From a virus, in IMG/VR virus record IMGVR_UViG_3300022752_000026, positions 1 through 64,000 of that record: a DNA stretch of 64,000 bases; one strand, 5' to 3'. The stretch's first letter is position 1. Every line of letters begins with the position of its first letter. Shown here piece after piece: positions 6,012-31,891 of the stretch. The notes under the pieces were generated by a model. That model was given only the letters and a program-made list of their open reading frames with translations. It was not told where the DNA came from and did not search any database. The translations under genes were made by a program, and so were the position numbers.

Positions 6012-6393
6012 TGTTCTATTCTACAGCAATTTTATTGAGGCGTACAGGCTAAGGCACTACAGCACCTTAGAATGGACGATTTGTAAAATATATGAAGGTT
6101 TACGATTTTTGGTTTTGGCCTGTGAGACGGCTCTGCATGGTGCGAGCCCTTTCCTAAATCGTTTCCGGAAATGTTTTTGATGTATTGGCAAAATTGTTTT
6201 TAGTTTTATTTTTTCTTCAGAAAGTTGAGTCGTGTTGGCTCATGTTTTACTTTTTGGTTCTGGTTTTGTATTGCTGACAAAGACCTGCCTATGTCTAGTC
6301 AAATAAAAATGTTTTTAGTTGTTTGTAGTTGGTCTGGCTAAACATCTTGGTTGCTTATGTCATTGTCTAAAGTTCTAGTCAAGAGTTAGGAGA

Positions 6394-6462
6394 TGGCTAG
6401 GTTACTGACGAGTAACTTACTGGGCTGGCTAAGTTACTAGCGAGTAACTTACTAGGCTGGCT
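6394..6462. repeat. 32-bp tandem duplication, each unit containing the palindrome GTTACT-N4-AGTAAC
   Basis: tggctaggttactgacgagtaacttactgggc followed by tggctaagttactagcgagtaacttactaggc. Confidence 0.9.
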
Positions 6463-6517
6463 GACAACGCTGACAAAATGTGTGAGACAACTAACAAATA
6501 AATGTATGTGTTATGGC

Positions 6518-6546
6518 TTGACATTGGGGGCTATGTGTCTTACTAT
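6518..6546 (+). promoter_or_regulatory. Sigma70/SigA-type early promoter
   Basis: TTGACA-17-TACTAT. Confidence 0.8.
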
Positions 6547-6589
6547 TACTTCATTGCTACAAGGTGTAGCAATAAGAAAGGGAAAACAA

Positions 6590-6829
6590 ATGGCACAGTA
6601 TGGAGTAAGTATCTTGGTAGATGAGGGCAAGTCTTATGGCTCAACTCCCTACTCTTTCGTAGTAGATACAAAGGAAAATGTAAGAGACCTACTACTAAAG
6701 ACCACCGCACCTATCACAGAGGTAATCGTGATGGAAGAGGCTTACGGCAAGGAAGCCCGTATGATGAGCGCAGAGGAAGTGCTGGGTATTGTTCTCAACC
6801 ACCCACGAATGGCACTATCACTAGCCTAA
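6590..6829 (+). CDS. Small early hypothetical protein
   Basis: AAAGGGA RBS before ATG 6590; has its own promoter and terminator. Confidence 0.75.
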   Translation: MAQYGVSILVDEGKSYGSTPYSFVVDTKENVRDLLLKTTAPITEVIVMEEAYGKEARMMSAEEVLGIVLNHPRMALSLA

Positions 6830-6843
6830 AAGTCTTAGCAGAG

Positions 6844-6867
6844 AAGCCCCCGCATGGGGGCTTTTTT
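6844..6867 (+). terminator. Intrinsic terminator
   Basis: AAGCCCCC-gcat-GGGGGCTT followed by a T tract. Confidence 0.85.
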
Positions 6868-6905
6868 GTTGCCTAAAGTATGACTGGTCATCTACCCTTT
6901 ATGGC

Positions 6906-6933
6906 TTGACAAGTCTAAAGTGTTTGATAGTCT
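6906..6933 (+). promoter_or_regulatory. Early promoter
   Basis: TTGACA-16-TAGTCT. Confidence 0.7.
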
Positions 6934-6976
6934 TTAGGTGTTAGGAAAAAGTAAAACCTAACAAAGGGGGAAAGAA

Positions 6977-7126: not shown

Positions 7127-7138
7127 AAGGCTCGCAAG

Positions 7139-7803: not shown

Positions 7804-8439
7804 ATGACAAAGATAAACTTCAGGACAAATCCTGAACAACTAAAGAAAGCGCACTCCGCTAGGGAAATCAACAGATACCCGCGAGTGAAAACAAACCCGC
7901 GACTAGCGGGCGAAATCAACAAAATTGGACAAGTGCTACCGCAGGAAATGGCTGACTTGCTAAAGTCGCTCAACACCGAAAGTAGAAATGGACTTGTTCA
8001 TGCCCTCACTAAGAAAGGCTGGACACAGGCGAGTATTGGTAAAGCGTTAGACCTATCACGAGAAAGTATTAGACAAATCGTGAGAGGAACTACCGCGACA
8101 CCCGTATCACCTGAAATCGTGATACCTGAACCACCACGCTATCCAATGCCTACACAGGTTCAATACACAATGCCAAACCCTGAACTCCTAGCGAGGCTAA
8201 AGGAACTTCAACCTTTCGCTCAACAGGTTCGCTCATCAAGTAAAAAGTTTAGGGCAGAGGCAGAGGAATACTCATACCTGCTCAATCAGGCAACAGAGCA
8301 AGGCGTAACAGTTTATCGTCTAGCAAAGTTACTAGGCGTTACTCCGTCCGCTATTCAATTCCGACTTGTTCGCTATGGCTACCGCAATAGTGCTGGCGAA
8401 AGCAAGTCATACCAAACAATCAAGAAAGAGAACAGATAA
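7804..8439 (+). CDS. Double HTH DNA-binding protein (paralog family)
   Basis: LTKKGWTQASIGKALDLSRESIRQI and QGVTVYRLAKLLGVTPSAIQFRLVRYGY; clearly similar to 46351-46911. Confidence 0.8.
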   Translation: MTKINFRTNPEQLKKAHSAREINRYPRVKTNPRLAGEINKIGQVLPQEMADLLKSLNTESRNGLVHALTKKGWTQASIGKALDLSRESIRQIVRGTTATPVSPEIVIPEPPRYPMPTQVQYTMPNPELLARLKELQPFAQQVRSSSKKFRAEAEEYSYLLNQATEQGVTVYRLAKLLGVTPSAIQFRLVRYGYRNSAGESKSYQTIKKENR

Positions 8440-8443: not shown

Positions 8444-8797
8444 ATGAAGCCAAGAGCGTGTTCCCAATGCGGGGACTGGTATAACCCTAAGTTTCAGGGA
8501 ACTGAAAGCCTATGTGGGAAGTGCCATCTCAAAGAAGTCATCAAAGAAAAACAAAACGAGGCGGAGGGGAGTGATTACCAAAAAGTAAAAACTCCCCGTC
8601 CGGCAACCCAAACACAAACAACTCATCAACCTGAACCAAGACTCAGGCGTGGAGAGTCAGAGTTCAGAGGCGAGTGCGCTAAATGTGGATTATGGCTTGA
8701 AGGCTCGGAGGTCTATAACAGAGAACGAGGCTGGATTTACAAATGGGTTCATGTTGATTATGACCGCACACGCAGGGACTACTGCTTAGTAGCATAG
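8444..8797 (+). CDS. Zinc-finger hypothetical protein
   Basis: CSQC...CGKC and CAKC motifs. Confidence 0.65.
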   Translation: MKPRACSQCGDWYNPKFQGTESLCGKCHLKEVIKEKQNEAEGSDYQKVKTPRPATQTQTTHQPEPRLRRGESEFRGECAKCGLWLEGSEVYNRERGWIYKWVHVDYDRTRRDYCLVA

Positions 8798-8918: not shown

Positions 8919-9389
8919 TTAGTCAGTTACCTTTACTGAAGTTCCTGCGAAGAGACGCTTGATTAGTTCCGCGTCATCAACCCGCACAGAAGTTTCATCG
9001 CAAGGGCAGAATTCTGCGAGCGCCCTGCGTGTTCCATGACTCAACCAACCCGGCTGGTCTTCATAACCACCATCAAACCCAAGTTGATAAAGTCTTTCTT
9101 GTACCAAATAAACAGAACGAGAGTTTCGTGAAATTGCCTCAAACTTCAGACTAGACAACAAAACAACTTCGTCATCTGCAAAAGTATCTGGCGCTGCCGC
9201 TGCAAACTTTTTACTTTTTGCTGGCTTTTCTTCCGGCACAACAACCGGCACATCTGCAACAACTTCTGGAGTTGTGAAGATTGCTGGTTCTGGTTCTGGC
9301 TCAACTACGATTGACTCCACCGCAACAGGCTCAATTACTGGTTCGTAATAAGGCTGTGGGTCTGGAGTTACGACATCATCATTGTTCAT
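8919..9389 (-). CDS. Acidic Pro-rich protein with a C-terminal peptidoglycan-binding-like domain
   Basis: SRSVYLVQERLYQLGF...PGWLSHGTRRALAEF fits the PG_binding_1 three-helix pattern; coupled to the transglycosylase gene. Confidence 0.6.
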   Translation of the reverse strand: MNNDDVVTPDPQPYYEPVIEPVAVESIVVEPEPEPAIFTTPEVVADVPVVVPEEKPAKSKKFAAAAPDTFADDEVVLLSSLKFEAISRNSRSVYLVQERLYQLGFDGGYEDQPGWLSHGTRRALAEFCPCDETSVRVDDAELIKRLFAGTSVKVTD

Positions 9390-10957: not shown

Positions 10958-11160
10958 TGAGTCGTCTTCTTCCTTTTGGGGCTTGTGCGTCCTTTGACGC
11001 GGGCTGATGGGTCTCGCAGAGGTGTTCCGCGACTTTTGATTGCCTTGCGAGCGCAACGATACGAAACCTTTAGTTCGCTTGCCACACTCTCAATAGACAA
11101 CCCCTCCGCATAAAGGCGGGAGGCGTCATCAGCAATTCTTTTACTTTTTGTTGAACTCAC
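10954..11160 (-). CDS. Small HTH DNA-binding protein
   Basis: LYAEGLSIESVASELKVSYRCARKAIKSRGTPLR. Confidence 0.8.
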   Translation of the reverse strand: MSSTKSKRIADDASRLYAEGLSIESVASELKVSYRCARKAIKSRGTPLRDPSARVKGRTSPKRKKTTQ

Positions 11161-11165: not shown

Positions 11166-11639
11166 TTACTCCTCGTCATAAGGTCTTTGTTTTGCTCCCA
11201 TGATTACTTCAGGGTCTAAACCTTTTGACCGCAACCACTCCTTGTTCTCAGGGTCTTGGGGGTCATTGACTACATGACGACCCTCGTTCCATGTGAAGAA
11301 AGATGTCGTGCCCTCAGGAAGAACCCAGAGGTGATACTGATTTGAGGTATCAACAAGTTGGCTTTCGGGTGGGAAGATTTCTACTGCCTCTCGTTCCGCG
11401 CCCGCGAGTTCGTTCTTGATACGCTGGAAGTGTCTCCAGTCTCTAATCGCCTTTCGTTCGTTGTGGCGAATAGAAAGATGGATACCACTCTTGTCCCCTA
11501 GTTCGGGTTCAAGTATGTGCTTGATGACTGTATAGAACTTGTTTTTCCAGATAGTTTGATTAGGGTCAAGTGTTACCTCGTGCCCATTTACAACCGCAGT
11601 TGCTTCTACAAACTTATCCCATGTTGGCTTGTTCGTCAT
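11166..11639 (-). CDS. Conserved phage hypothetical protein
   Basis: HLSIR...DWRHFQRIKNELAG...EAVEIFPPESQLVD...YHLW, a widespread phage motif. Confidence 0.75.
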   Translation of the reverse strand: MTNKPTWDKFVEATAVVNGHEVTLDPNQTIWKNKFYTVIKHILEPELGDKSGIHLSIRHNERKAIRDWRHFQRIKNELAGAEREAVEIFPPESQLVDTSNQYHLWVLPEGTTSFFTWNEGRHVVNDPQDPENKEWLRSKGLDPEVIMGAKQRPYDEE

Positions 11640-13031
11640 ACTTTTGGATTGTCCTTTATCTTTTTCACAATGCGATACACCGCATAAGCCACAACACCTG
11701 CGATTAGTGCTGGTGTATAGACGGATACATTGAAGAAGTTAGATGAAACCTCAATCCACTCAAACTGGCACTTGAAGTCGCAATTTGCCTCCGCAATAAC
11801 TTGTGTAGTTTCCATTAGTTCACCTCCTCTGCTATTTGGTTATACATCTCTGTGGCAGAAACATTTGACGGGAATTCAATAAGACTCATACCTTCTCCGG
11901 CAACTAAGAAAAGTGCCGACTCAACCGCATCATAGAGTTCTCTTTTTGCTTCAGGGTCTAATTCGTTGGAAACACTATCATCATCAAGACCTAAACTGTA
12001 GAACTCGTTGGTAAGTGCTTCTCTTAGTTGGAATTGCTTTTCTGGGCTATCTGTTTCTTGCGCCCAACTAAGAGTTAGACCGCAGGAAGCGAGCGCATCT
12101 AAAACTAAAAAGGTAGATACTGGCTCCTTCAACTCGTTAGATAACGAGTCAGTAAACTCTTCAACTAAATCCGCATAGACATTTGTCTCTCTGTCTGTCA
12201 TTTTCTTTCTCCAACTACTTTTTCCCATTCCAACTCAACCAACTCTTGGCGTAGTTGTTTGTTCTCCCGCATCAACTTCCCGTAGGCGTTGATGGAAACT
12301 ACCATCACGAAGCATGAACCTGCGAGCGCGATAATGATTGCGAATAATGTTCCTGTGTCTAAAACCATTTTTACTTTTTCCCTCCTAGTGATGGAAGCGG
12401 AAGATTTCTAACATACTCCCTCCGCGCTTCTCTTGTTGGCAAAGCGTCTCGTTCTGCTAACTGCTCCTGCGTCATGTATGTGAACTTCAATAAGAAATCC
12501 GCAAAGTCGTTATCTGAAATGACCGCAAGGTCTTGTCCAAACTTTCCTTTGTTCATTACTTCCCCTCTCCAAAATAACAAGTAATCATGTCTCCCCAGCA
12601 ATAACCCTCTTCGCCACCGACCCACCATAGGTTTCCTGAAACCTGAAGCAAGCCCCACACAAGCGCACCTGCGAGCGCGAGAGCGATAACAAACGCAACT
12701 CGTCTGCGTTGTATGTATTTCTTTTCCATCTTCATTACTATTGCCATCTTCTTAGCCCTTTCTCTAAGTTTGACTCCTTTGAGCCAATAAGATAATAATA
12801 CCAACTTCCCTGACTTTTTTCAACTTACCTGACTTTCGGCGTGTCGCCCGCAGAAAGATAGATGGGGGTGCTTTTTACTTTTTGGTTAGCACTTTCTTCC
12901 TCCACGCAACCCCACTCCACATAAGCGCACTTGTCCCAATAACAACGGGTAGCAAAGCACATCTCATCACCGCAGGGGCAATCTATCCACTTAGCGTCCG
13001 CATCACACTTGGAGCAAGTGGTCGCTTCCAT
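11636..13031 (-). other. Run of coupled small early genes (11636-11815, 11815-12201, 12198-12368, 12371-12556, 12556-~12747, 12825-13031)
   Basis: Overlapping stop/start codons and GGAG/GGGG RBS; several are single-TM or Cys-rich proteins. Confidence 0.65.
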
Positions 13032-13579
13032 TACTCGCCCTTAGCGGGTAGGGATAGCAACCACTTCTCAAAGGTTGAGTTGAACAAAGCGTAGTCGCTT
13101 CGCTTGTCTCGGATTAGGCAGATTGCTTCTTCCGCAGAGTAGCCCTCTTTCATAAGAACCAATGCCATGATTAGCCCTGAACGATTGAGACCTGCTTGGC
13201 AACGAATAAGAACTTTCTTACCCGACTTCCAATCTTCGTGAGCAATCCGCACAATTTGGAATAACTCCTTGAAGTCAATCCCACTCATGTTCGGGCTATC
13301 GTAAAACGGATAGCGTATTTCTTTTACTAGCCAATCCGCAGGGTTTGCGTATTGGTAGGCAGTAATTACTGTATCAAAGTCTTCTTTAGTAATCTGCGCT
13401 CCCTCACGCTTGCTCTCCCAAATTGTGTCGTCATCATCTGTTCCACCTTGAAAAAGGTTTGGTAAGACTTCACTCCACAATTCATTAGGGTAGTCAATCG
13501 CTTCGTATTGAGGCGCGATACCTAAGTCGTCAATGTCGTCTATCTCTGTCCATGTTGTCTTCGTCATTTTTTCCTCCAT
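13031..13579 (-). CDS. Dual-specificity/protein-tyrosine phosphatase family protein
   Basis: GKKVLIRCQAGLNRSG is the CX5R active site; followed by AEEAICLIRDKR. Confidence 0.9.
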   Translation of the reverse strand: MEEKMTKTTWTEIDDIDDLGIAPQYEAIDYPNELWSEVLPNLFQGGTDDDDTIWESKREGAQITKEDFDTVITAYQYANPADWLVKEIRYPFYDSPNMSGIDFKELFQIVRIAHEDWKSGKKVLIRCQAGLNRSGLIMALVLMKEGYSAEEAICLIRDKRSDYALFNSTFEKWLLSLPAKGE

Positions 13580-13591
13580 TTCCTTATTTTA

Positions 13592-13753
13592 TCATTTTGT
13601 TTTTGTTTTGGCAAATCCTAATACCGCATTAGCAATAGCGTTCCAGAAATCTGCTTCTCTCTGATACTGCGCCCTTGACTTGTAAGTAGCCTTAGGCTTA
13701 CGGCGCATACGCTTGTATGTTCCGACTATTGCGCTATCTGGTAAATACTTCAT
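13592..13753 (-). CDS. 53 aa basic peptide, ADFWN family copy 2, leaderless (not in ORF track)
   Basis: MKYLPDSAIVGTYKRMRRKPKATYKSRAQYQREADFWNAIANAVLGFAKTKTK; promoter TTGACT-17-TATACT ends 6 nt before the ATG. Confidence 0.85.
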   Translation of the reverse strand: MKYLPDSAIVGTYKRMRRKPKATYKSRAQYQREADFWNAIANAVLGFAKTKTK

Positions 13754-13759
13754 AACTGA

Positions 13760-13788
13760 AGTATAGCACTTTCTTTTAGAAAAGTCAA
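13760..13788 (-). promoter_or_regulatory. Early promoter (representative of many minus-strand copies)
   Basis: TTGACT-17-TATACT. Similar promoters at 10710-10738, 14021-14049, 14490-14518, 14923-14951, 15504-15532, 15868-15895, 16465-16493, ~18735-18762, ~27555-27583 and ~29868-29896. Confidence 0.8.
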
Positions 13789-13789
13789 A

Positions 13790-13999
13790 TCAAGCCTTAG
13801 GCTTGCGTGGCTTGCGTTTCTTGGGCTGACGCTTGGCATACTCTTTTTGGGCATACCAACCCGCACCAAAGAACAACAAGAAACTTAGAGCGTTGGCTGA
13901 AATAAGCGCAGTAATAACTATGACCGCAAGCGCGACCCATAGCAACTTCTTATAGATAGCCCACTCTTTAGGGTATGGCTTGAATACATACTTGAACAT
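13790..13999 (-). CDS. Small two-TM membrane protein with basic tail
   Basis: Hydrophobic core; has its own promoter and AAAGGGG RBS. Confidence 0.7.
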   Translation of the reverse strand: MFKYVFKPYPKEWAIYKKLLWVALAVIVITALISANALSFLLFFGAGWYAQKEYAKRQPKKRKPRKPKA

Positions 14000-14246
14000 A
14001 ATTTCCCCTTTCTTGACCTAAGGATAACATCTATCCGCATAAAAGTCAAATTATAAAAAAGAGACATAACTCACAGAAAAAATGTCCGATTTGTCTTTAC
14101 ATGTTTTGAGCCAAGGTTTTTGGCATCTACGAACAAATTAAGTTGTTCTTACCTGGAACCAGGCATTTGGTGATTTTTACTTTTTGCCTATGCGCTTTCC
14201 GGCAAAAAGAAAACCCCCGCTTACGCGAGGGCTTCCTAAAATCTAT

Positions 14247-14459
14247 TTAGTTTTTTACGAGAACCGCAGGGTCAAACCCTTTAGCGCACTCTCGCCCTAC
14301 TGCCCATAAACCTTGGGACTCCTGTGAGTCGCTGGCTGGGTGGAGTATGAACCCCGCATTAGATAGGTGGACGAACCATGGGTTCTTACCTACTGTGCGT
14401 CCGCATTGGCAACACGCATTATCGTTGAGACCATTTACCGCATCTCCGAAACTTAGCAT
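14247..14459 (-). CDS. Small zinc-binding hypothetical protein
   Basis: CCQCG...VGREC; has its own promoter and a terminator at about 14206-14235. Confidence 0.7.
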   Translation of the reverse strand: MLSFGDAVNGLNDNACCQCGRTVGKNPWFVHLSNAGFILHPASDSQESQGLWAVGRECAKGFDPAVLVKN

Positions 14460-14649
14460 TTATAACACCCCCTTTCTGCTAATACCCTAAGTATAACATA
14501 GCAGGGTTGAAAAGTCAAATCATGGCGTGTCGCATTGGAAGCAAACGGGTTCTCCATTTACTTCGTTCATACAACCACTATCAAAGTTCTCCTCGCACTT
14601 TACGCAGTAGCAAGGGTCGTCCTCTACCACATGAGTATTCAAGCAAGAC

Positions 14650-14891
14650 TTACAAAACTTCGCAGTCGTGTCCATACGCCCACTCCTCTGCGTCTATCTC
14701 ATTGAGTAGGTTGAATACTCGTCCGCACTCAACACACTTGGCTTTAGTTGTTATTTCCATGGTGAGTGAACCACCTCGTTGTCGTATCCGCACTTTACGC
14801 AAGTGAACCAATAAGTTGAACCATCATCTTGAAAATCTTCGTTCTCTGCCTCGCACTCATCTGCCTCACATAGAACCACATACTTAGCCAT
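14650..14891 (-). other. Two tiny Cys-rich ORFs (14751-14891 and 14650-14760)
   Basis: MAKYVVLCEADEC...CVKCG and MEITTKAKCVECGRVF...GHDC, behind a TTGCAT/TATAAT promoter. Confidence 0.6.
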
Positions 14892-15111
14892 GTCTTTCCC
14901 CTTTCGTTGGCTTGTTGGTGTAATTATAACAAACGCTTTTTAGAAATGCAAGTCGTGTCGCAAAGTTGTTTTTATGTCCAGCACCGCCGCCGCAGCAAGC
15001 GAGCGCGAAGATGCAGGTTTTTACTTTTTGCTAATGCAGTGGGTCCGGCAAACTTCCGAACAACAAAAAAGACGCGGGGGTTAGTCCGCGCCTTTCTTGT
15101 GGGAAATCTAT

Positions 15112-15480
15112 TTAGTTGTATAGCGCACCGAATAGGTAGGCAGTTGGAATTACTTGTGAGTTATACGCCAACCACTTCTCTACCTGCTCGTCAGTCAGTC
15201 CTAGCGTGTAGCCCTCTTCATCGCTTCCGCCAGTAATGATTACATTGCCGAGAATAGGATTACCTGCTTTCCATGTCTCCGCATAGATAGCCGACCCGTG
15301 TAGGTTTAGTGGCAAGCCCTCTGCTATGCCATTTTCATTTACCCACATGTCTGTGTTCTCGTCAATTCCAACGCACTCTATCATTCCGCCAACCGCGTCA
15401 GATAAAGTCTTGTAAGAAGTTTCGTTAGTAAATTCAACAACGGACTTCTCACCACTTGTTGTGATTATGACTGCTTTCAT
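15112..15480 (-). CDS. DUF3846-like protein
   Basis: LSDAVGGMIECV...MWVNENG...LPLNLHGS...ILGNVIITG. Confidence 0.75.
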   Translation of the reverse strand: MKAVIITTSGEKSVVEFTNETSYKTLSDAVGGMIECVGIDENTDMWVNENGIAEGLPLNLHGSAIYAETWKAGNPILGNVIITGGSDEEGYTLGLTDEQVEKWLAYNSQVIPTAYLFGALYN

Positions 15481-15597
15481 AGTGTCCCCCCTTTCTTTCT
15501 CTAAGTATAACACCGCAGTAAATAAAAGTCAAGTATCTATAAAAAGAAAACTCCCCCGCGCCAAACCAAACGCGAGGGAGTCTCCCACCCGACCCGA

Positions 15598-15837: not shown

Positions 15838-16114
15838 TGTTTTCCCCTTTCTGAAGTTGATAGGAGTATTTTACCAGTTTGCTAGGGGAAGTCAAGTCCA
15901 AATAGGTATTTCCGTAGTGTGTTCTCTATCACATTTTTTTACCCTATCACAAGAAGAACCCTTTGGCACTTCTTCCGCAAGTTGTTCGTTCTCTCCAGAC
16001 AGCCGGGTCCAGAGCCGGTGGCAAAAAGTAAAAACTCGCTCTTCTGAGCCGGACATCAGAATAACTTGTACATGAAAAAACCCCGGCTCTTCAGCCGGGG
16101 CTTCTCCAGATAAC

Positions 16115-16360: not shown

Positions 16361-16600
16361 GCGTTCCCTTTCTTTAGGTTCAGTAGGGGAGTCGTATTGT
16401 TTCCGACCCCCTAGGTTTCAGGTCGTTCAGGTGTCCAGCGACTTGCCCCCTACTGAATAACTGAAGTATAGCAACCCTAGAAAGAAAAGTCAAGTAGTGT
16501 CGTTCAGGAAATAGCGTACGCATAAATACTTGCGAACAACTTTTTGATTTGCAGTGGGTCCGGCTCCAGAAGATTGCGTGCCGGAGATTTTTACTTTTTG

Positions 16601-17173: not shown

Positions 17174-17205
17174 CGTACTGCTCCCTGTCGGTTTTTACTT
17201 TTTGC

Positions 17206-18703
17206 CTAGCCTACGAAATCTTCCCAGAGTTCTTCTCTAAGTTGTTCGTATTTCTCTCCGTTATGCCCGTTGAAACGATTTGAGATGTCCTCGTCTCGGA
17301 GAAGATAGTCTAACGAAAGGACGGCAACGCACCCCTCCTCGCCAAACATAATCACAAGTTTCGTGTCGCCATCATCAGGGTTATCCACAATGGAAGCAAT
17401 AAAGGGTGAAGCCCCTCCGTTAGGGTGGTAGTCCTTAGACACTATTCGCATGGCAAAAAGAGTAGCGTGCCGAAATAGTATCAGTAGTTAGTAGAAAGTC
17501 AAGAAAAAAGAGACACCACTCCCTTTGGACAGGAGCAAAGGAGAGTGGCGGAGCGACAGGGGAAAGGGTATTACCCGTGCTCTATGTCGCCACCCGAAAG
17601 GGGGGGAGGTAGCGACAATACTGTTTTTACAGGATTAGATTTTATCAACAATCTCAATGGGCACTACGACTTCGGCAGATAAAATCTCGCCAGCAGAAGT
17701 CTTACGAACAAACCGCCCTTTGGGATTATCAAGGTTGAGAACAATCTTTGTGCGCCTCTTACCGACAACGGAAGCAGTCTCACCGCGTAGATAAGAAGTT
17801 CCGCACCTGTCGTTTAGCCGAACCCTATCTCCTACGGAAAAGTCTTCAACCTTTTTGTTAGCACCAATGACCATCAGCCTTGCGTCAATAAGTTTTCTTA
17901 GGTCGTGAAGTTGTCTGTCCATGTCGCCATTTTCAACTTTGTCCGAGATGGCAACATACAAGTCTAAGTTGTTAGTCGTTATCATCTTCTTCTCCATCTA
18001 CAATGCCAATGTCGTTTGATACAGACGCAACATCAAATCCATAGTATTCGTTGATAAATACACTAGCAACGCGAACCGCAAAGTCCTCATCACTCTCACC
18101 ATCTTGTCTCAACTTCTCGTCAAGAACAACTGTGGTCATAAGCGTGAAGTAATCACCAACGAACATTACTGTTCGTGAAAGATTTATCTCGTCCATTTTT
18201 ACTTTTTCCTTAGCAACTCATGGTGGAGACAACATGGGACAAGTAATCATCATAGGCGTCAGCGTTGCGATAAAACTCGCCATCACCTTGATAGGGATTT
18301 ACCCACTCTTGCTTGGCTTCGTCCCAAATAGTTCCATCAGGAAACCGCGCCTCTTCGCTATCAACATCATGCGACCATACGCCTGTCTCATCATCAAACT
18401 TTAGTATGTAGTGGTGTTCAGCCATTAGAGTCCCTCCTCCTCTGTTGCTTTTTGTATGTGTTCAGCAATCATGTCGGGGTCGCACCCAGCAGACACCAAC
18501 ATCTTGCGCCACAAGGTCATAGCACCAAACTTTTTATCCATAAGGAAGAACAACTCTTCCATGTCCAACTCTTGACCGCGTTCGTTCCTGTTATGTCTGC
18601 GTTCAATCTTTTCGTCCAGCATAGTAATAAAAATGCCGAGCGACATAGTGAGCATGGATACTTCTTCTTCAGTTACTTGTACTTCTACTAAATCGTTAGC
18701 CAT
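17206..18703 (-). other. Five small acidic early proteins (17206-17451, 17635-17997, 17972-18196, 18210-18425, 18425-18703)
   Basis: ORF track, RBS and coupling. 17635-17997 has an SH3/KOW-like FSVGDRVRL segment. Confidence 0.65.
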
Positions 18704-19886: not shown

Positions 19887-22383
19887 TTACTCAAAGTCAA
19901 ATCCATCTTCACTATCTTCTTCAGCGTCTTCTTTTGGAAACAACTCCCTAAGGGGCATTATGTCCAGCATTTCTAGGTGTTCTCTGAAACAAAGAACTAG
20001 ACACTCGTGGCACTCTTTAGTCGCCATGAATTGTTTGGCTATGCCCTTTTGGTAGAACGCCTCAACCATGTCGCTTATGGCTCTGATTTCCCACTCAAAG
20101 AGAACAAGTTTTGTATCGCGTTCATTTTTACTTTTTGCTGACTCACACATTGGTATCCAGCGAGTTGCTCTAGTTATTTTGATTTCGCCATCTTCAGTTG
20201 TGTTCTGTTCTGTGGCGATTGGCTCGTATTGGTGTAGCCCTGTCTTTAGGACTTTATCTACTTTCGTAAAAGAGATTGCTCTGTCTTTATCTTCCATAGT
20301 CTCTCTGTAAGTAAGAGAGAAGCCCCTACCACTTTGGATAGGGGCTTCCCAACTTTTCACTTATTTGCTCCTGTTAGAGCAAGGAGAGTAGCAACTGCCT
20401 CGTCAAGGCTTGCTTCGTTCTTGTGTTGTGGAGTTTTCATCACTTGAACGATTTTGTCTGTGGTGTGTTCAGCGAACACATCAACAAGGTGTGGATTTGC
20501 TTTTAGGAGTTCCTCTTTGTTGAGGTTCTCGCGTGTCTGTGTTCCAATAACTACAACTGGAACTCCAGCGATTGTTCCCTCTGTGGCAATACCAATCCAA
20601 GAAGAGCCAACCTTTTTGTAGCCGAGAAGTGTGTAGAGTTCTGCTTGCGCTTCTTCATACGCCTTTTCTGCTAGTGCTTTTGTGCGTTTTGCGCTTGCTA
20701 GAAGTTCAAGGGCTTGCTTAGCCTTTTTCGCTTCCGCAGGTGTCTTGTCTAGAACCTGTGTAGTTGAAACTTCAACTACTACTGTCTTTTTAGACATTTG
20801 CGTCCTTTCATCTTTTAGGAGAGAAACCTTTTCACTCCTTTGCGTAAGAGAGTTACACTCACTTACAACTCCAAAGATACTCGCATTATTCCGCCAAGTC
20901 AAGTCCAAACAAGGATTTGCTTATGTGTTTTACATCACATAGTATTAGCCCTCGTCAGATACAACCTGCTGGGCTATCTCAACGAAATCTTCGGCTGCCG
21001 AACCCTGAAAGTGCCACTCGCCATTTTCGTAGGTCTCAACAACTTCAGACCATTGTTCGTCTGTAATGAACAATCCGTTTTGGTATCCCTCAACTGTTGC
21101 TTTGTCCCAATAGGCGACAATCAACTCGGTATCAGGTTCGTATGCTTCCAACTGCTCTAGTAGTTCTTTGACTTTCATTTTTACTTTTTGCTTCCTCTCT
21201 TAGGCTACTGCGAGTTCCGAGTTGTTCGGAGTTCGCACTTCTCTTCGCGGTTTGTGTGGGCGTGGAACATCTCCAACCCAATCGCAAACCAATCCGTCAT
21301 ACATGTCCTGCCATAAACCAAAGTCTTCTTTTATTTCCCACCCGCATTTCTTACACACAATCATTTTTACTTTTTCCTTTCCTTGCCGTTAGAAGTGAAA
21401 ATCAACGGGAACTAGATACTGCTTATTTGGTTCAAGGGCGAGCCGATTTCTAAAGAACTCTAGGTTTGCCGAACCCTCTTTCAAGTCATAGACGCCCGTA
21501 TCCGAACACCAATCGTTTGATAAAAGTTTCCCTAGTCGTGCCAATGTCCAAGCACTCATACCTGTGCCGTAGTCAAACTTTTCGGGGTTGTAGTTCTCAA
21601 TCATCTTGCCAATGTCAAACCCGTCTTTTGTTATCTCCGCTAAGTATTTTTCCATTTCCTTTTTACGATACCCAGCGAACTCTCTGATTATGTCGTCAGC
21701 AAGAAGTGGGTTCTCCGCATAGCAGAGAGCGTTCCGTTCTTCTTCCCAGCCCTCAAACAATCCGTCCCACCTGCCACCGACCTCATGCCAATCAGACCAA
21801 GTTGGATACGGGTCTTCTGAATAAGTTATTTGGCTTTTGACTTCGCCAATAGCGTCCTCGCCACTTTCTGCTTCTACCAACATTATTTGGCAAACGTGCA
21901 TTTTGTTCCTCCCTCTCTTACCCCTATTGTAATCATTTATTCTGAAAAGTCAAGTTCCCCATTTATGATTTTTTCAGAGTGCGCTCTGTCTCTTAGATAG
22001 ACCTCTGCGACTTTCAATGCCTCGTCTAGTTCATGCTCTACCGCGTCTAAGTGTTCGCCAAAGCAATACAAATCAAACCAAGAGTTATTTATCCAATCAA
22101 GAAGTTCTTGGTCGTTCGCCAATTTCAATGCGTCATCTGTGTCTATGCCCGCGTCAATGAAATCTGTTGGCGAGAACAAACTAGAAACAATTTCTCCTTG
22201 TGGTGCGTCCAAGAGATTTGCTCTTGTCTCTCCATCACAATAAACATCTACTTGAAATCCTTTGTATTCAACTGTTGCTATACAACCCATACCTGTATAG
22301 AAAATAGCGTCCTGTTGTGATGGGTGTGGGTCAAAGCCTAAGTGATACTTTATTTTTATTTCATCATCTGTCATTGTTGTCAT
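19887..22383 (-). other. Early hypothetical genes (19887-20297, 20357-20797, 20945-21178, ~21205-21365, 21389-21901, 21937-22383)
   Basis: ORF track and RBS. 21389-21901 has WSDWHEVGGRW and VPVDFHF motifs common in phages. Confidence 0.65.
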
Positions 22384-22505
22384 TTGTTTTCCCCTTTTAC
22401 TTTTTAGATGTGTTGGCTCGGCTCTGTGGTGAGAGACGAAAGAGCAGGTTGTCTATTTTCGGAAGGACACTCCTGTCTATCACCGAGCCAACACCTGTTA
22501 GAACA

Positions 22506-26344: not shown

Positions 26345-26516
26345 TTTTACTTTTTCCTTTCTTTACTTGATTTCGTAGTCAGAGCAGATTTGCTCAACCG
26401 CATCATTGAGAGAGTTTATTAGCAAACTAACTTCGTGGTCGTTGAGATGAGCAATCATCTCATCTGTGATAGATGAACTCCACGCAACCCCTCTTATAGA
26501 TAAACGAGACATAACC

Positions 26517-27185
26517 TTATCCTTTCACTAGTTCTACATCTTTGACCGCAGAAACTTCAATGACTTTTTTAGCCCCCGGACAATCCGAATACCAATCATC
26601 AACATCTTCAGAGTTAGCGCAAGCGCACCCATCTACATTGTCTCGTTCTTCGTAGTCAGCGTGAGAGTCAGGTATGTCCCACTCTTTTTCTATGGAGTGT
26701 TCCCCATCTTGGAAAACATACACGCCACCGAAACCTTGTTCTTCTTCCCAATCTAAAGTTATTTCTAACTCTGGGTATTGAGAAGAAAGATTTTCAAGGG
26801 CTTCAATAGGTGGAGACCACGCAGTTTGAAATCTGTAACCAAGATTAGTTTCAGAGTCATTAGTCATTTCAGTATCAGAATACTTGTTGCTATCTGCTAC
26901 ACCAATGTCCCACTTAGTTCCCCACTCACGATTATTGAAGTTATACCAGTTGAACGCACCATCACCTTGTCGTTCTCCATCTGCGTAACCATGAACACCC
27001 TCATACTCTTCCATCTTGTCTTCAGGTGGGCGAACTATGTTCCAGAACGCAATAATCGGATTTGAGTAAGTCTGCGCCCCATCTTCAAAGTTGCGTTGGT
27101 ATGGCGCATTGAGTTGTGCTTTTACTTTTTGGATTTGCTCTTTGTCGCCATCTATGGACAAAGAGTTGAATACCCAGTTTGGCAT
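26517..27185 (-). CDS. DUF1281/YubB ferredoxin-like domain protein
   Basis: MPNWVFN...WYNFNNREWGTKWD...FQTAWSPP...YPEL. Confidence 0.85.
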   Translation of the reverse strand: MPNWVFNSLSIDGDKEQIQKVKAQLNAPYQRNFEDGAQTYSNPIIAFWNIVRPPEDKMEEYEGVHGYADGERQGDGAFNWYNFNNREWGTKWDIGVADSNKYSDTEMTNDSETNLGYRFQTAWSPPIEALENLSSQYPELEITLDWEEEQGFGGVYVFQDGEHSIEKEWDIPDSHADYEERDNVDGCACANSEDVDDWYSDCPGAKKVIEVSAVKDVELVKG

Positions 27186-27548: not shown

Positions 27549-27863
27549 GCTCTCATTTTACAAGATGCGGTTCTCTTTGTCAAGATGGTGTAGTTGGACT
27601 TCCAGCAAATCCCGTTGAGCACATCACAACAACTCGCGGTTCTAGCCAGTAACCTTCCCTGTTTTTACTTTTTGGTAAGGGCACGCCGTTTGCGTTTTTA
27701 CTTTTTGGTGCGTACGCCTTCGCTGTGGCGACATCGCAACAACTTGCGGTTCTACACCAGCAGCGGGCTGCATCGCGTTATGTAAGAGCGAGCCGTTATG
27801 TGCGTACAGCAAAAACGACTTGCCGTTATTACGACAAGCCGTTCTTGGTCTTAGAGAAAGGGA

Positions 27864-29042: not shown

Positions 29043-29050
29043 AGCGCACT

Positions 29051-29512
29051 TTACACCACTAAAACAAACTTGTCAACTATTGATTTTGGTTCAGGCCAGA
29101 CATACTCCAGATTGTTTGGAACATCAGGCCAGAGATGTTGATAGTGTTCAGGGAACTTACGAATCAGGTTTGACTGATGGGACTCGTGAAAGGCTGCATC
29201 ACCAAGCCAAGATGGATAAGTTGTTTGTTCTTGCAGGGCCGCCAGGTCTTCCAGGATTTTCTGGAACCTCGGTTTCATTGTGTCTTTATATCCTCGTGCT
29301 ATCCATTCATCGCAGATGGCGATAGCGTATAGAGCGAGTGCGGTTTCGTATCCGTTCCACATCAGAACAGCAGGATGGTTCCTCCATCCCTTAGTCTCAC
29401 CGTTGAGTGCACGGAAAATCTGAAAGGCTTCTACCCGTTGCTTACCTAGTCTGCGATAGTCCAGCACACTAGCGGTTTCACGGAAATCTGCGCATGGCAG
29501 GAACGTCTGCAT
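29051..29512 (-). CDS. Pyrimidine-dimer DNA glycosylase/endonuclease V-like protein (MSMEG_6728 family)
   Basis: MQTFLP...LDYRRLGKQRVEA...WRNHPAVLMW...HESHQSNLIRK. Confidence 0.85.
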   Translation of the reverse strand: MQTFLPCADFRETASVLDYRRLGKQRVEAFQIFRALNGETKGWRNHPAVLMWNGYETALALYAIAICDEWIARGYKDTMKPRFQKILEDLAALQEQTTYPSWLGDAAFHESHQSNLIRKFPEHYQHLWPDVPNNLEYVWPEPKSIVDKFVLVV

Positions 29513-29680
29513 AATTCGTCTCTCTATCTCTTGCCGCTTTTACTTTTTAGCGGTTAAGCAAAAACAGTAACGGTTAGCGCACGCCGCGTCAATAGTCATG
29601 CCGCTATTTTTTGTTTTTGCTTTTTGGCTTGGATTCTTTCTTCCCTCGCCGCGATTGCAAATAGCGCACGCCATAAAAAC

Positions 29681-29860
29681 TTATTTAGTCTTGTTCTCAC
29701 GGTTGACCTCCCTCCTACCGGTTATTGCGTCCCATACAAAGTATGTAACGGTATTCCAGAAATCGGCAGACCTTTGAGCACGGTTCATATTTACTTCGTA
29801 GTCGCGTTGACTACGGTCAATGTTGAGTAACACTTTTGCAATGATTGCTTCAAATATCAT
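29681..29860 (-). CDS. 59 aa leaderless peptide, ADFWN family copy 3 (not in ORF track)
   Basis: MIFEAIIAKVLLNIDRSQRDYEVNMNRAQRSADFWNTVTYFVWDAITGRREVNRENKTK; TTGACA-17-TAAAAT ends 7 nt upstream. Confidence 0.7.
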   Translation of the reverse strand: MIFEAIIAKVLLNIDRSQRDYEVNMNRAQRSADFWNTVTYFVWDAITGRREVNRENKTK

Positions 29861-30413
29861 AAACAGTATTTTACTTAGCGCTCGCCGTTATGTCAATAGG
29901 GGCACGCCGCTCTTGCCGCTGCTGCCTGGCCGCTGTGAGAAGTTGTTGAATTGTTTGTAGTTGACTTTGCGGCGGAGCCGCAAAGCGGAGTCTAGTGATA
30001 GAAAATATAAAAGTCAAATCCACACGCTCGCCACTCAGAAGACCGGCCGCCAGGTAGAACTACAAACAACTTACGGACATCGTTAAGACATCCCTCGTGG
30101 TGCAGCCTCCCAGATTCAGACACCTGTGTTTTTACTTTTTACTTATCAGGTGGAGGAGATGGTGGTTACGGCGGAGGTGGCGTGCCGGCCCCTGCACATC
30201 AAAACAAGTTGTTGGTTTCTTTACCTGGTCCGGTCATGCCTGAACAACCTGCGCAACGATGCTTGTTCTGGAAGGCGGGCCCTGCAACTACAAACAATTT
30301 GCTGGCTGTGGATAACCAGGTAAACACTCTGGCGCATACAGGATTACAACTAACGGTTTACTAAAAGTAGCACTTGCCGGCTTCTGGCTGCAAGCAACTA
30401 CGAACAATTGCGG

Positions 30414-30572
30414 TTACTGGTCAGTAACTTGTTCTTCGGACGCAGGAGGCACGGTTATGTTAAGAACACCCATCTCTGTTGTGGTTGAGCAACCAGGGCA
30501 CCGTTGATACGCACCCTTCTCATACAGCGTCCCACACCAGAAGCAATCGGTTAATACTTGTTCATTGTCCAT
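30414..30572 (-). CDS. 52 aa zinc-ribbon peptide (not in ORF track)
   Basis: CFWC...CPGC; AAAGGAG RBS. Confidence 0.55.
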   Translation of the reverse strand: MDNEQVLTDCFWCGTLYEKGAYQRCPGCSTTTEMGVLNITVPPASEEQVTDQ

Positions 30573-30704
30573 TCCCAGGCCGCTCCTTTCATTTTTACTT
30601 TTTGGCTAAGCGCAAGCCGTTAGTTACCTTTTGGCACCTAAAGTTACCTTTTGACACCTTAAGGTACATTTGCGCTCGCCGTTGATTTGACTTTTTACTT
30701 TTTA

Positions 30705-30878
30705 CTAACTAGACTGTGCTTCAGCACGGTCTAGTTTGTAAAGTTCAAGAAGTTGCTGTGCTTCGTTAGCGCGAGCCGTTGAGCGAATGTGCGCTTGCCG
30801 GTCTAGCGCTTCTGGGATGTCTGCGGCGCAGCGGTCAGCGTGCTCCTGGAGTAACTCTAGGAAATTGTTTGTAGTCAT
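30705..30878 (-). CDS. 57 aa protein coupled to terS (not in ORF track)
   Basis: TGATG overlap; MTTNNFLELLQEHADRCAADIPEALDRQAHIRSTARANEA... Confidence 0.6.
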   Translation of the reverse strand: MTTNNFLELLQEHADRCAADIPEALDRQAHIRSTARANEAQQLLELYKLDRAEAQSS

Positions 30879-31792
30879 CAGTCTTCAGCCTCCTCAGGCA
30901 CGCCGTTAGTTGAAATTTCAATAACTGGTTCAGCATCAATAATTTTTGTCTCTGGTTTTGCGTCCGCGATGGCACTGAGCGCAGCAATCCTAAGTTGTTC
31001 CATTCTTGCAGCGATGACCTCGTGTGGCGCTGGCCCGTTACTCTCAACCTCTACATTAAGTTCAATCCCACCTCGCACGCCGGCGCGGTCAAGGATTTCT
31101 GTGGCGGCTTTGAGTTGGACTGGCTCTGACTGTGCATCTAGAAGTTCTTCAAGTTTGTCTACAGCGTAGGGGGCAGACTGAACAATTTTCTGACGTGCCC
31201 GTTCAATGTCTCCTCCTGGACGACGGTTGAACTTAAGATGGTAGCGACACAAGCCGTCATCCTTGAGACGACCCGATGCCCACATCAAACAACGCAAGCC
31301 GTCAGACTTGACAGTTTTGCAGCGATGTGGTAGACCTTTAGGTGCACGCCGTTCAGATTTGGGTCCCCCTTGTTCCTGTTCTTCAAGGTAGGCACGGGTA
31401 GCAGCAACTACCCACGGTGGAGTGATTTTGCAAGCGTCACGGTCAATGATGAGGTCCAGGCCCGTTAAGAAGTCTGAGTTGTTATTAGTTGGGTCCGTTA
31501 GGAGCGGACGACGTTCGGAGAAGTTGACGAGTCGGCGCTCGCGGAGTTGTTCTTTAGAGCGTGCCGCAATCAAACCCGTTGTGTGTCCTAGTTGGTCGTA
31601 GACGTAATCCCAAGTGAAGTTGGCGGCTCTGAGTATCTGACGGTTCTCAAAGGTGTCCTCACAGACACCACGGTCATATTCAATAATTCCGAACTCGGTT
31701 AAGTCAGGCCGAAGGTCAACGGGGGTTGATATATCAGGGAGGCCGCTAGCCTCATCCTCGTTGTTCGTAGTTGGTTCCAGGTCACTGGTCAT
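30878..31792 (-). CDS. terS: Probable terminase small subunit
   Basis: CCCH-type finger (RC...DGLRC...GLCRYH) followed by APYAVDKL...VQLKAATEILDRAG, and a C-terminal IIDAE, all typical of TerS-like proteins. Confidence 0.65.
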   Translation of the reverse strand: MTSDLEPTTNNEDEASGLPDISTPVDLRPDLTEFGIIEYDRGVCEDTFENRQILRAANFTWDYVYDQLGHTTGLIAARSKEQLRERRLVNFSERRPLLTDPTNNNSDFLTGLDLIIDRDACKITPPWVVAATRAYLEEQEQGGPKSERRAPKGLPHRCKTVKSDGLRCLMWASGRLKDDGLCRYHLKFNRRPGGDIERARQKIVQSAPYAVDKLEELLDAQSEPVQLKAATEILDRAGVRGGIELNVEVESNGPAPHEVIAARMEQLRIAALSAIADAKPETKIIDAEPVIEISTNGVPEEAED

Positions 31793-31891
31793 TTTTACTT
31801 TTTGGTCCCTTTACGGACTTGGCCCCCCTACGGGATTATTTTATAAATTATTTTTACCGTAGGGCGGGACAAGCCACTTATTTAGTTTTTA

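Follow-up and report, generated by a model that had tools for sequence, protein, structure and literature searches.

Early block and repeated word

The window, the whole stretch of 64,000 bases analysed here, belongs to the 124,941-base record (G000) of an uncultured lake phage of actinobacteria and shows a block of small early genes in which the word AAAAAGTAAAA is repeated. The initial annotation had listed 26 copies of this word and a near copy at 27254. All 26 are exact: 23 read TTTTACTTTTT on the plus strand (minus-strand sites below), and three, at 6946, 8580 and 16023, are in minus-strand notation (plus-strand sites below); the near copy is present as AAAAAGTAAAG. The confinement to one block proposed there extends to the whole 124,941-base record, where every copy is within 6245-31803 and no exact copy is found outside. 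Seven variants with one mismatch are in or beside the block, against the 26 exact copies: six are inside and one is at 5433, 0.8 kb before the first copy of the block. The early block has roughly one site per kilobase, and these occupy nearly all of its available non-coding junctions. The extended consensus, T-W-A-S-C-AAAAAGTAAAA-R, is asymmetric and spans about 17 bases, and a purine directly follows the conserved stretch in 24 of the 26 copies.

Dinucleotide shuffles give 0.19 expected copies in the window, and none of 100 attains 26. Markov models of orders 1 to 5, which cover the orders 4 and 5 suggested in the initial annotation and include models trained on the early block itself, give from 0.05 to at most 1.4 copies. 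Other words of the form A5-NN-A4 occur only 0 to 3 times each in the block, so A-tract composition, the alternative considered earlier, does not explain the 26 copies.

Location of the copies

The copies are located at cistron junctions, adjoining start codons, shortly after stops or upstream of host-type promoters. The block contains 25 of the 32 strict matches to TTGAC[AT]-N16-18-TAnnnT found in the window, and is predicted to be transcribed by the host polymerase. Host-type promoters with leaderless starts, showing a -10 box six or seven bases before the ATG, are found at 13753, 27548 and 29860. Among 47 curated minus-strand genes, 20 have a promoter but not the word, eight lack a promoter and have the word at most 30 bases upstream, and two have both. 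No -10 or -35 element is found at a fixed distance on either side of the word in the 26 copies, and no extended inverted repeats are found around them. In six records, a start codon is within one base of the word end at 35 of 129 sites (ATG offset 0 in 24, -1 in seven and +1 in four). About half of the copies are not close to a start codon. Six G000 genes show the ribosome-binding site, the word and the start codon in succession with zero spare bases, and further copies are 11 to 25 bases ahead of the start codon, before the ribosome-binding site.

The copy at the left block edge (6245..6255) is followed by cATG and is about 230 bases upstream of the helix-turn-helix (HTH) gene 5511-6011. Six further positions, where the initial annotation had placed the word directly on start codons, were verified. 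The copy at 12369..12379 adjoins ATG 12368 and supplies, with its TAA, the stop codon of ORF 12371-12628; it is retained in L132, where the ATG is one base nearer. The copy at 18197..18207 adjoins ATG 18196, with stop 18210 two bases before it; its last A is overlapped by the ATG in L131, and the copy is absent in G001. The copy at 21179..21189 adjoins ATG 21178, a start codon also adjoined in G001 and L131, and the one at 21365..21375 adjoins ATG 21364, 13 bases after stop 21389, is retained in L131 and has no equivalent upstream of the G001 orthologue. The copy at 26345..26355 adjoins GTG 26344, seven bases after stop 26363, and the right block edge copy (31793..31803) adjoins ATG 31792, again a start codon adjoined in L131 and G001. 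Other copies are ahead of the start codon: 22395..22405, 11 bases before ATG 22383 with a GGGG ribosome-binding site in between; 29538..29548, 25 bases before ATG 29512 of a gene with a Pyr_excise match (pyrimidine dimer glycosylase); and 30593..30603, 20 bases before ATG 30572 (40 bases in G001).

Several copies are one or two bases past stops or 50 to 125 bases upstream of the next promoter. The three positions previously described as just after stops have this spacing: 16589..16599, one base after stop 16601 and followed after 95 bases by the promoter at 16493; 17193..17203, between two genes, with stop 17206 two bases before it and ATG 17173 of a proteasome/HslV-like gene 19 bases after it, the latter spacing being the same in G001; and 30693..30703, one base after stop 30705. 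Intergenic copies are found at 14175..14185 (stop 14247 is 61 bases before it, and the promoter at 14049 is 125 bases downstream), at 15019..15029 (stop 15112 is 82 bases before it, and ATG 14891 follows after 127 bases) and at 30130..30140 (112 bases upstream of the promoter at 30017). A tandem pair is in non-coding DNA: the first copy, 27663..27673, is 79 bases upstream of the promoter at 27583, and the second, 27696..27706, is 33 bases from the first. This non-coding stretch contains four copies in L131.

Of the copies that the initial annotation had assigned to genes, those at 8580, 9209, 12873 and 27120 are in ORFs taken as coding, but the other two did not hold in the same way. The copy at 11139..11149 is, in the gene model, intergenic: ORF 11166-11639 ends 16 bases ahead of it, with its stop at 11166, and the next start, at 11056, follows after 82 bases (81 bases in G001). 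The copy at 20126..20136 is in ORF 19887-20360, of uncertain coding status and with a weak coding signal (third-position share of substitutions 0.53); its adjacent ATG is out of frame with this ORF and is missing in L131. The copy at 9209..9219 is inside ORF 8919-9389 and G001 has a copy at the corresponding place (77799), the one at 12873..12883 is near the 3' end of ORF 12825-13031, with the -35 box at 12823 located 49 bases downstream, and the one at 27120..27130, inside ORF 26517-27185, is retained in L131 and absent in the G001 orthologue. The copy at 8580..8590 (plus strand) is inside ORF 8444-8797, at the same offset in the G001 orthologue (46% identity).

The two remaining plus-strand copies differ in their surroundings. 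The copy at 6946..6956, in a divergent plus-strand gene cluster, is just downstream of a promoter, 12 bases past the -10 box of TTGACA-16-TAGTCT at 6906, in the loop of a seven-pair stem and with an ATG about 20 bases further on; copy and promoter are both retained in G002. The copy at 16023..16033 is the sole one reversed with respect to local transcription and is about 45 bases behind a terminator, CCCCGGCT-gaag-AGCCGGGG-TTTTTT. Reversed counterparts are at the corresponding place in L131, L132, L146, L147 and L149, and a terminator is ahead in five of the six records.

Stems around the copies average 4.38 pairs for the best stem, against 4.34 at random places. The stem flanking 12873 is GTGCT/AGCAC in G000 and GGGCT/AGCCC in L131. 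The seven-pair stem around 8580 is replaced by a different seven-pair stem in L146 and is absent in G001 and G003, and the six-pair stem at 30130 (CACCTG/CAGGTG) is disrupted by one change in L131.

Orientation of the word

Local gene direction is shared by 25 of the 26 copies (P = 4e-7 against 0.5), so that the earlier claim that the word flips with gene direction stands with 16023 as the exception. The argument drawn from it is weaker: with the motif masked, the sense strand of the block shows 61 A-runs of at least five bases against 15 T-runs. The orientation bias may be partly compositional and, since the sense strand avoids T-runs about 4:1, it is no proof of polar action. A terminator-like hairpin precedes 12 of 23 reversed sites in 13 records, compared with 29 of 152 sense sites and 58 of 687 randomly chosen positions. 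The repeated word of lineage L142 is located between a terminator and a promoter.

Conservation in related genomes

In L131, also named G002, whose DNA is about 84% identical, 220 of 220 motif bases are unchanged, while other non-coding DNA is 83% identical and the DNA neighbouring the copies 83-85%. Orthologues with 46-60% protein identity retain the in-gene copies at matching positions. These comparisons place the word under strong purifying selection and agree with the nucleic-acid-level selection proposed in the initial annotation. The conservation in relatives that it had suggested checking was also found: relatives at about 60-75% protein identity contain 24 to 32 copies concentrated in the early block, and confinement, examined in three further records besides G000, includes 23 of 25 copies in G001. 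The sister lineage G004 shows its own word, GGGTAAAAA, with 22 of 25 copies in one 21-kb stretch, and to judge from sequence this word has the same role. Copies turn over between genomes, with four extra in L131 and both losses and gains in G001, and the ATG offset shifts by one or two bases between orthologous sites.

Putative reader proteins

The genome contains three proteins with two HTH units each. The protein encoded at 7804..8439 (plus strand), of 211 residues, matches HTH_3 and Sigma70_r4 at residues 53-100 and shows weak HTH matches at 159-190; its structure model has two helical units with a linker between them, and no solved relative was found by sequence or fold. Its recognition helices are the same in G000 and in the G001-type protein, which is 65% identical, whereas relatives without the motif have different ones. 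A paralogue with 42% identity is outside the block (46258..46911, plus strand). The third, distant protein (5511..6011, minus strand) is a homologue of gp76 of Pumpernickel, whose gene is flanked by two terminase genes, and probably belongs to the packaging module instead of being the reader; the two motif classes are distinguished by 12 of its 166 columns, and the first HTH region contains three of these, the second none. As reader of the word, a two-HTH protein like 7804-8439 is only a candidate. Homologues of 7804-8439 occur in cultured Microbacterium phages, but the early region of Pumpernickel, the sole one of these examined, shows no such word array; and no 7804-type orthologue was found in G004, although G004 has an array. 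Both results count against the docking-site reading proposed below.

No T7-like polymerase family match was obtained in G000, G001, G002, G003, G004 and DSL-LC01, in a search run without a positive control; sigma region 2 was not found either, and the large proteins of no assigned function have family matches to head and virion proteins. Among 23 block proteins scanned, none was recognised as a member of an RNA-binding or nuclease family, the Lsr2 family gave no match, and neither a tyrosine integrase nor a recognisable immunity repressor was found.

Comparison with known systems

The initial annotation had likened the word to stoperators and start-associated sequences (SAS), and its layout does resemble both (PMC9283540, PMC3203893). 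In Cluster A phages, a monomer with two DNA-binding domains reads more than 20 asymmetric 13-mers, which are found at promoters and in short gaps between genes (PMC9283540). The operators and stoperators of L5 gp71 and the TipsytheTRex repressor share with the word the short asymmetric site, more than 20 copies, short intergenic spaces plus a promoter, and an orientation that goes with transcription; two DNA-binding units in one protein would be compatible with a monomeric reader here (PMC9283540). Unlike them, the phage word has a different sequence, is limited to a 25 kb early block and not genome-wide, adjoins start codons at a quarter of its sites and occurs where no integrase or repressor of the above kinds was found (PMC9283540). 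The SAS/ESAS of Cluster K are likewise asymmetric, about 13 bases long and found only in the non-structural genome part. They have one orientation, with a single reversed copy away from a gene start, are tied to start codons and have no function established in print (PMC3203893, PMC12699233). However, SAS holds a Shine-Dalgarno core three to seven bases before nearly every associated start, whereas the phage word has no such core and either separates the ribosome-binding site from the ATG or precedes both, about half of its copies are away from starts, and it shows no extended inverted repeats (PMC3203893, PMC12699233).

RegA/RegB homologues are not among the matches of the family scans. In T4, early expression is switched off through RegA/RegB signals, which are located between the genes and at the translation initiation regions of early messages; RegB cleaves the tetranucleotide GGAG and RegA recognises loosely defined sites, whereas the phage early block conserves an exact 11-mer.

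Function of the word

We interpret the word, tentatively and with a probability of about 0.45, as the DNA docking site of a sequence-specific phage regulator with a stoperator-like layout. The main rival, which we regard as rather unlikely, is an RNA-level element: AAAAAGUAAAA in early mRNAs would be the binding site of a translational repressor or the cleavage site of a sequence-specific nuclease, switching early messages off or trimming them before the AUG to leave them leaderless. The sense-strand bias, the abutment on start codons, the six tightly packed G000 genes, the copies ahead of the ribosome-binding site and the existing use of leaderless starts from host-type promoters are all in its favour, as are the copies in loops of stems of five to seven pairs with covarying arms (12873 in G000 and L131, 8580 in G000 and L146), which fit RNA better than DNA and count against the docking site. 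The abutment also counts against it, because a roadblock does not predict it, and the docking reading could only account for it by pressure for a short distance between ribosome-binding site and ATG; compaction may also explain it. Against the RNA-level element are the copies not close to a start codon, the reversed copies conserved behind terminators, where little sense RNA is expected, the lack of a general hairpin and the result of the RNA-binding and nuclease scan.

A DNA mark without polar action, such as a loading or nucleation array for a coating, positioning or silencing protein, or a recombination word that helps to shuffle small early genes, is improbable in our view; its orientation would be set solely by avoidance of U-tracts inside transcripts. 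It agrees with the regular density at junctions, the T-run avoidance, the turnover of copies and the location of reversed copies behind terminators, where a T-run is harmless or useful, but not with the Lsr2 search, and the copy 12 bases after a -10 box and those before promoterless genes suggest a link to transcription. Highly improbable is a phage-specific promoter, from which transcripts would begin at the base after the word, leaderless where an ATG follows and with short leaders elsewhere. The conserved stretch ending right before a purine and the eight promoterless genes would suit it, and exact conservation within a genome with lineage-specific spelling, as seen here, is typical of phage-polymerase promoters. 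This reading is nevertheless weak because no phage RNA polymerase or sigma factor was found; in addition, the unassigned large proteins look structural, no -10 or -35 element accompanies the word, the word is missing from the replication and structural gene regions, the block already holds about 25 host-type promoters and the ATG offset varies between orthologous sites.

The docking site is favoured by the reversed copies in spacers behind terminators, such as 16023, which probably lie in little-transcribed DNA, and by the L142 word; both lean towards DNA-level action. It is also supported by the exactness of the copies and their conservation in L131, the confinement of the array to the early block, the placement of the copies relative to genes and promoters, the Cluster A precedent and the presence of three two-HTH proteins. 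The packaging-like third HTH protein counts against it, as do the T-run avoidance, which may account for the orientation bias, the absence of sites from the rest of the genome, unlike stoperators, and the missing tyrosine integrase. A regulator acting on the host polymerase would fit, since the block contains host-type promoters and lacks a detectable phage polymerase or sigma factor, and it would most likely be a phage-encoded DNA-binding protein. This regulator would dock on the asymmetric site of about 17 bases at the junctions of the early block and, as it accumulates, the occupied sites would halt or hold the host RNA polymerase at cistron junctions, operon ends and one or two promoters. 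Early transcription would thereby be shut down or partitioned, as by the Cluster A mycobacteriophage repressors at their stoperators.

Genome context and a probable early block

The viral record that contains the window (G000) has 124,941 bases, is estimated to be 86% complete, and the window is its first 64 kb. Its products include a portal, a major head protein, collagen-like fibres, a class II ribonucleotide reductase and a primase-helicase. The nearest named relative is the Actinomycetia phage DSL-LC01 from lake water, whose portal is 74% identical, followed by large Microbacterium and Arthrobacter phages, and the public sequencing runs containing the stretch are mostly freshwater metagenomes. 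From this gene content, these relatives and these runs, we identify G000 as a large tailed phage that infects uncultured actinobacteria of fresh water.

The block between 6.2 and 31.8 kb, which gave zero megablast matches to named phages, shows about 50 small genes, located on the minus strand nearly throughout, and, at 6.5-8.8 kb, a short cluster of divergent plus-strand genes. Host-type promoters crowd this block, which holds 25 of the 32 strict TTGAC[AT]-N16-18-TAnnnT matches of the window, and a strong ribosome-binding site lies downstream of many of these promoters. At three minus-strand genes, starting at 13753, 27548 and 29860, the ATG is only 6-7 bases past the -10 box of a strong TTGAC[AT]-17-TAnnnT promoter, and their messages are therefore probably leaderless. 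Recognised block products are an AAA+ ATPase with a VWA partner, a pyrimidine-dimer glycosylase, a proteasome-like subunit, a phosphatase, a lysozyme-like protein and HTH proteins. From the promoters, the ribosome-binding sites and leaderless starts, this set of products and a syntenic block in DSL-LC01, we infer that the block is an early region transcribed by the host polymerase. Three metatranscriptome runs contain the stretch, as assembled contigs only, which carry no transcript ends, strand or level and cover the block evenly in two of the runs. The assembly of one RNA library includes an 86-base unitig at 21220-21305 whose depth, 1036, is about 6-7x that of its neighbours (137-170); this piece may be repeated or shared.

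An exact word confined to the block

The window contains 26 copies of the A-rich word A5GTA4 (TTTTACTTTTT or AAAAAGTAAAA), each at the coordinate reported in the initial annotation. Markov models of order 1-5 expect 0.05-1.4 copies, even with the block as training set, and dinucleotide shuffles expect 0.19. A-tract composition does not explain the count, since the other A5-NN-A4 words have 0-3 copies each in the block. The confinement that had been proposed extends to the whole record: all copies lie within 25.6 kb of 124.9 kb, and the remaining 100 kb or so has none. Seven one-mismatch variants are found in or beside the block, six within it and one at 5433. The conserved stretch exceeds 11 bases: the five bases preceding the word show T-W-A-S-C, and the base directly 3' is a purine in 24 of the 26 copies. 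The full site is thus about 17 bases, asymmetric and not palindromic, with no other conservation within 45 bases on either side of the word. A reading of the word as part of a host-type promoter was rejected, as no -35 or -10 box is conserved at a fixed offset within these 45 bases. Among the literature matches listed for the 11-mer, its complement and its RNA spelling, none has a phage context.

Placement at gene junctions

Coding frames were set from third-position substitutions against a relative, and 47 minus-strand genes were curated. Twenty of them have a promoter in the 110 upstream bases but lack the word, eight have the word within 30 bases upstream but lack a promoter, two show both, and 17, many of which overlap the preceding gene, show neither; ten genes in all have a copy within 30 bases upstream. 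Six copies abut the start codon without a spare base, with a purine-rich ribosome-binding site directly before the word, and five are 11-25 bases 5' of the start codon. Other copies are located 1-2 bases past a stop codon or precede the next promoter by 50-125 bases, one plus-strand copy is 12 bases 3' of a -10 box, and four are within coding ORFs. At 12369-12379, the upstream ORF 12371-12628 ends on the TAA that the word contains in one frame. Roughly half of the copies in G000 are distant from start codons. Among 129 sites of six records, the ATG begins within one base of the word end at 35 (offset 0 in 24, -1 in seven and +1 in four).

Conservation and respelling in related phages

The expectation that relatives would conserve the word is borne out in G002 (locus L131), a related record with about 84% DNA identity, where the 19 sense sites that can be aligned, and the reversed site too, all retain the word exactly. 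There, 220 of 220 word bases are kept, versus an identity of 83% for the rest of the non-coding DNA and 85% for coding DNA, and identity drops to background exactly at the word edges. G001, a relative of 122.9 kb (92% complete) whose block proteins are mostly 50-80% identical to those of G000, contains 25 copies, of which 23 fall within a single stretch of 29 kb. Placement relative to orthologous genes is retained in G001 at about nine sites, including spacings of 0, 19 and 81-82 bases, as are two in-gene sites; the remaining sites were gained or lost between the two genomes. Two fragments of distant relatives contain 32 and 24 copies. A conserved neighbouring gene led to 34 further loci, 27 with the word and seven with GGGGTAAAA(A). 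A direct scan of viral contigs for GCAAAAAGTAAAAA matched at least 118 stretches, and failed to single out relatives because each stretch had one match among those listed.

The sister lineage G004, a complete 136-kb record, has 22 of its 25 copies of GGGTAAAAA within one 21-kb stretch, in the same kinds of context as A5GTA4, ATG abutment included. Yet other lineages have different words, and the junction-word spellings known so far in this phage group, of which 205 contigs were matched, are A5GTA4, GGGTAAAAA, ACTTCCAACGAAG, AAACTTCTAACGAAG and TATTCGTTTTTTCC.

Other repeated elements

A second box, AAC-N-A-N-AAACAACTT, is located 25-50 bases beyond the word in inter-operon spacers of several lineages: at 14140, 14963, 15979, 29940 and 30065 in the window, and in the related loci L192, L210 and L147. 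The bare 8-mer AACAACTT has 47 copies genome-wide, on both strands and mostly in coding DNA. The syntenic block of DSL-LC01 (L002-L008, 24-43.4 kb), from which the A-rich word is absent, has a strong extended -10 promoter, TTCTAAAGATGTTATAAT, in 17 copies, at most of which a palindrome GATTCTA...TAGAATC surrounds the -10 box, and a conserved leader core, CGAAAGGACA, with 18 copies 5' of start codons, 17 of them as the longer ACGAAAGGACA. In the related lineage of locus L142, TATTCGTTTTTTC, a word whose sense strand is T-rich, recurs 13 times at 12057-21471; most copies follow an intrinsic terminator by about 10 bases and precede a promoter-like site by 20-60. The L140 lineage contains 15 promoters with a common ATTTGACAA, most of which have a box like CGACACGCC 15-25 bases upstream.

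Orientation and reversed copies

The initial annotation described the word as following gene direction, with the exception of 16023, and named a polar transcription roadblock among three possible actions. The orientation stands, 25 of the 26 G000 copies agreeing with the local genes, but it is not proof of polarity. Of the sites in 11 records, 110 follow transcription, 21 oppose it and 12 are ambiguous. Once the word is masked, 61 A-runs of five or more but only 15 T-runs remain on the sense strand of the block. Within transcription units, such avoidance of T-runs would leave any site with two A-runs A-rich on its sense side, whatever its function, and the site could turn round wherever a T-run does no harm. 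The bias in orientation is thus real, but taken alone it is no demonstration of polar action; this caveat, tested on this block, may apply to the orientation bias of other phage motif arrays.

The copy at 16023 (+) is not noise, since all five other lineages compared show a reversed copy at the matching place; in five of the six records it is about 40-55 bases past an intrinsic terminator. More distant lineages have two or three reversed copies per 20 kb, mostly past terminators and sometimes forming the T-tail itself. In a tally of 13 records, some of them mutually related, a terminator-like hairpin precedes 12 of 23 reversed sites, versus 29 of 152 sense sites and 58 of 687 random places.

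Possible modes of action

Our leading but tentative reading, with a probability of about 0.45, is that a DNA-bound regulator blocks or holds the host polymerase at these sites and so would shut down early transcription. Docking of a sequence-specific regulator on DNA would account for every class of site: junctions would be the spots where an exact word of 11-17 bases fits without harming proteins, and next to an ATG the word would be wedged between ribosome-binding site and start. Pressure to keep that distance short can explain the abutment. The same abutment also favours an RNA-level element in early messages, as do a few sites that place the word in loops with covarying stems. Good stems occur at a few sites (6946, 8580, 30130 and 12873), but a hairpin was rejected as a general feature: the best enclosing stem averages 4.38 pairs, versus 4.34 at 2000 random block places, and stems of at least five pairs occur at 42% of word sites and 40% of random places. 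Half of the copies are remote from starts, and reversed copies are conserved where sense RNA should be scarce, all of which counts against an RNA-level element, which we rate as clearly less probable than docking on DNA. Very improbable, in our judgement, is a processing signal, in which early polycistronic messages would be cleaved directly after AAAAAGUAAAA by a phage or host factor whose sequence specificity is unusually long. Internal cistrons would then become leaderless, a type of message translated well by actinobacterial ribosomes, or early messages would be destroyed at the switch to later expression; reversed DNA copies past terminators would be a separate use, with the T-rich strand as terminator tail.

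The shape of the word would also fit a promoter for a phage polymerase. This reading is rated low because neither such an enzyme nor a sigma factor was found, the block is already equipped with host-type promoters and the word is missing from later gene regions. The phage RNA polymerase profile PF00940 had no match in G000, its relatives G001, G002, G003 and G004, or DSL-LC01, and absence is not proven by this, as control genomes were also blank; the Sigma70_r2 profile had no match. The large uncharacterised proteins match head and virion families, among them a 1736-residue protein that matches head-protein PHROGs and has no solved relative.

Candidate readers

For the regulator proposed to dock on the DNA, evidence on candidates is mixed. 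Three G000 proteins contain two HTH units each; they are encoded at 7804-8439 (+), within the divergent cluster of the block, 46258-46911 (+) and 5511-6011 (-). No sequence or fold match to solved repressors was found for the two-HTH proteins; a fold model of the 7804-8439 protein (mean pLDDT 74.8, pTM 0.48) gave only weak partial rows against the PDB and nothing at E <=0.001. A further candidate is the product of 15112-15480, a DUF3846 protein with a Cro-like HTH tail. The protein at 46258-46911, with 42% identity to the early one, is encoded just 5' of a virion structural gene (47088-48299), which hints that paralogous two-HTH regulators may serve distinct gene classes. Covariation gave no evidence for the 5511-type protein as reader: 12 of the 166 columns distinguish the 28 A-class sequences from the seven of the G class, three of them in the first HTH region (about two expected) and none in the second, and the separation is uninformative as the G class is probably one clade. 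Its homologue in the cultured Microbacterium phage Pumpernickel sits among terminase genes, and the early region of that phage shows no high-copy word. A family search for an Lsr2-like protein had no match.

Comparison with known phage systems

Oriented multi-copy words are known in cultured actinobacteriophages and, to our knowledge, the mechanism is proven for the stoperator only. The Cluster A stoperator system is the closest worked example for docking on DNA: PMC9283540 describes a monomer with two DNA-binding domains that binds asymmetric 13-mers at promoters and short intergenic spaces. In stoperator systems, reversal of a site abolishes the elongation block. Like stoperators, which are asymmetric, of about 13 bases and in more than 20 copies, the word has 26 exact copies in a site of about 17 bases, is located in short intergenic junctions and at one site near a promoter, and tracks transcription in its orientation, with the caveat that the sense strand generally avoids T-runs. 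Stoperators are distributed genome-wide in temperate phages, whereas the word is limited to 25.6 kb. Their reader is a monomeric repressor with an HTH and a stoperator domain; the two-HTH proteins of G000 would suit a monomeric reader, and they have no sequence or fold match to solved repressors. No tyrosine integrase was found in the 86%-complete record, only a small serine recombinase at 53339-54007 (+) (Resolvase family, E 2.6e-38). Its gene is directly 5' of 54066-57881 (+), which encodes a 1271-residue protein with a PA14 domain, and the enzyme may be an invertase that controls a gene for an adhesin or fibre, not an integrase.

The start-associated sequences (SAS) of Cluster K, whose consensus GGGATAGGAGCCC includes the Shine-Dalgarno core in the part of PMC3203893 that describes it, resemble the word in being restricted to the non-structural region, in one orientation, with a lone reversed copy off starts. 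They differ from it in that the word is A-rich and lacks AGGAG, the ribosome-binding site being beside it; nearly all SAS are 3-7 bases before the start, whereas the word has an ATG within one base of its end at 35 of 129 sites, and about half of its G000 copies are elsewhere; and the extended Cluster K form has 17-base inverted repeats upstream, whereas the word has neither a conserved upstream element nor a general stem. A passage of PMC12699233 still treats SAS as unexplained in 2025. At promoters of phage-encoded RNA polymerases, transcripts begin at a fixed base of a conserved word; unlike in such phages, no phage RNA polymerase gene was matched in the six records searched here.

The same kind of signal is now found in large phages, apparently lytic, whose hosts are uncultured freshwater actinobacteria, as a word confined to the early block, letter-exact across wide divergence and respelled in sister lineages. 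The candidate HTH proteins have homologues in cultured Microbacterium phages, a possible experimental route, and the different spellings provide natural sets of genomes in which the reader could be sought by covariation.
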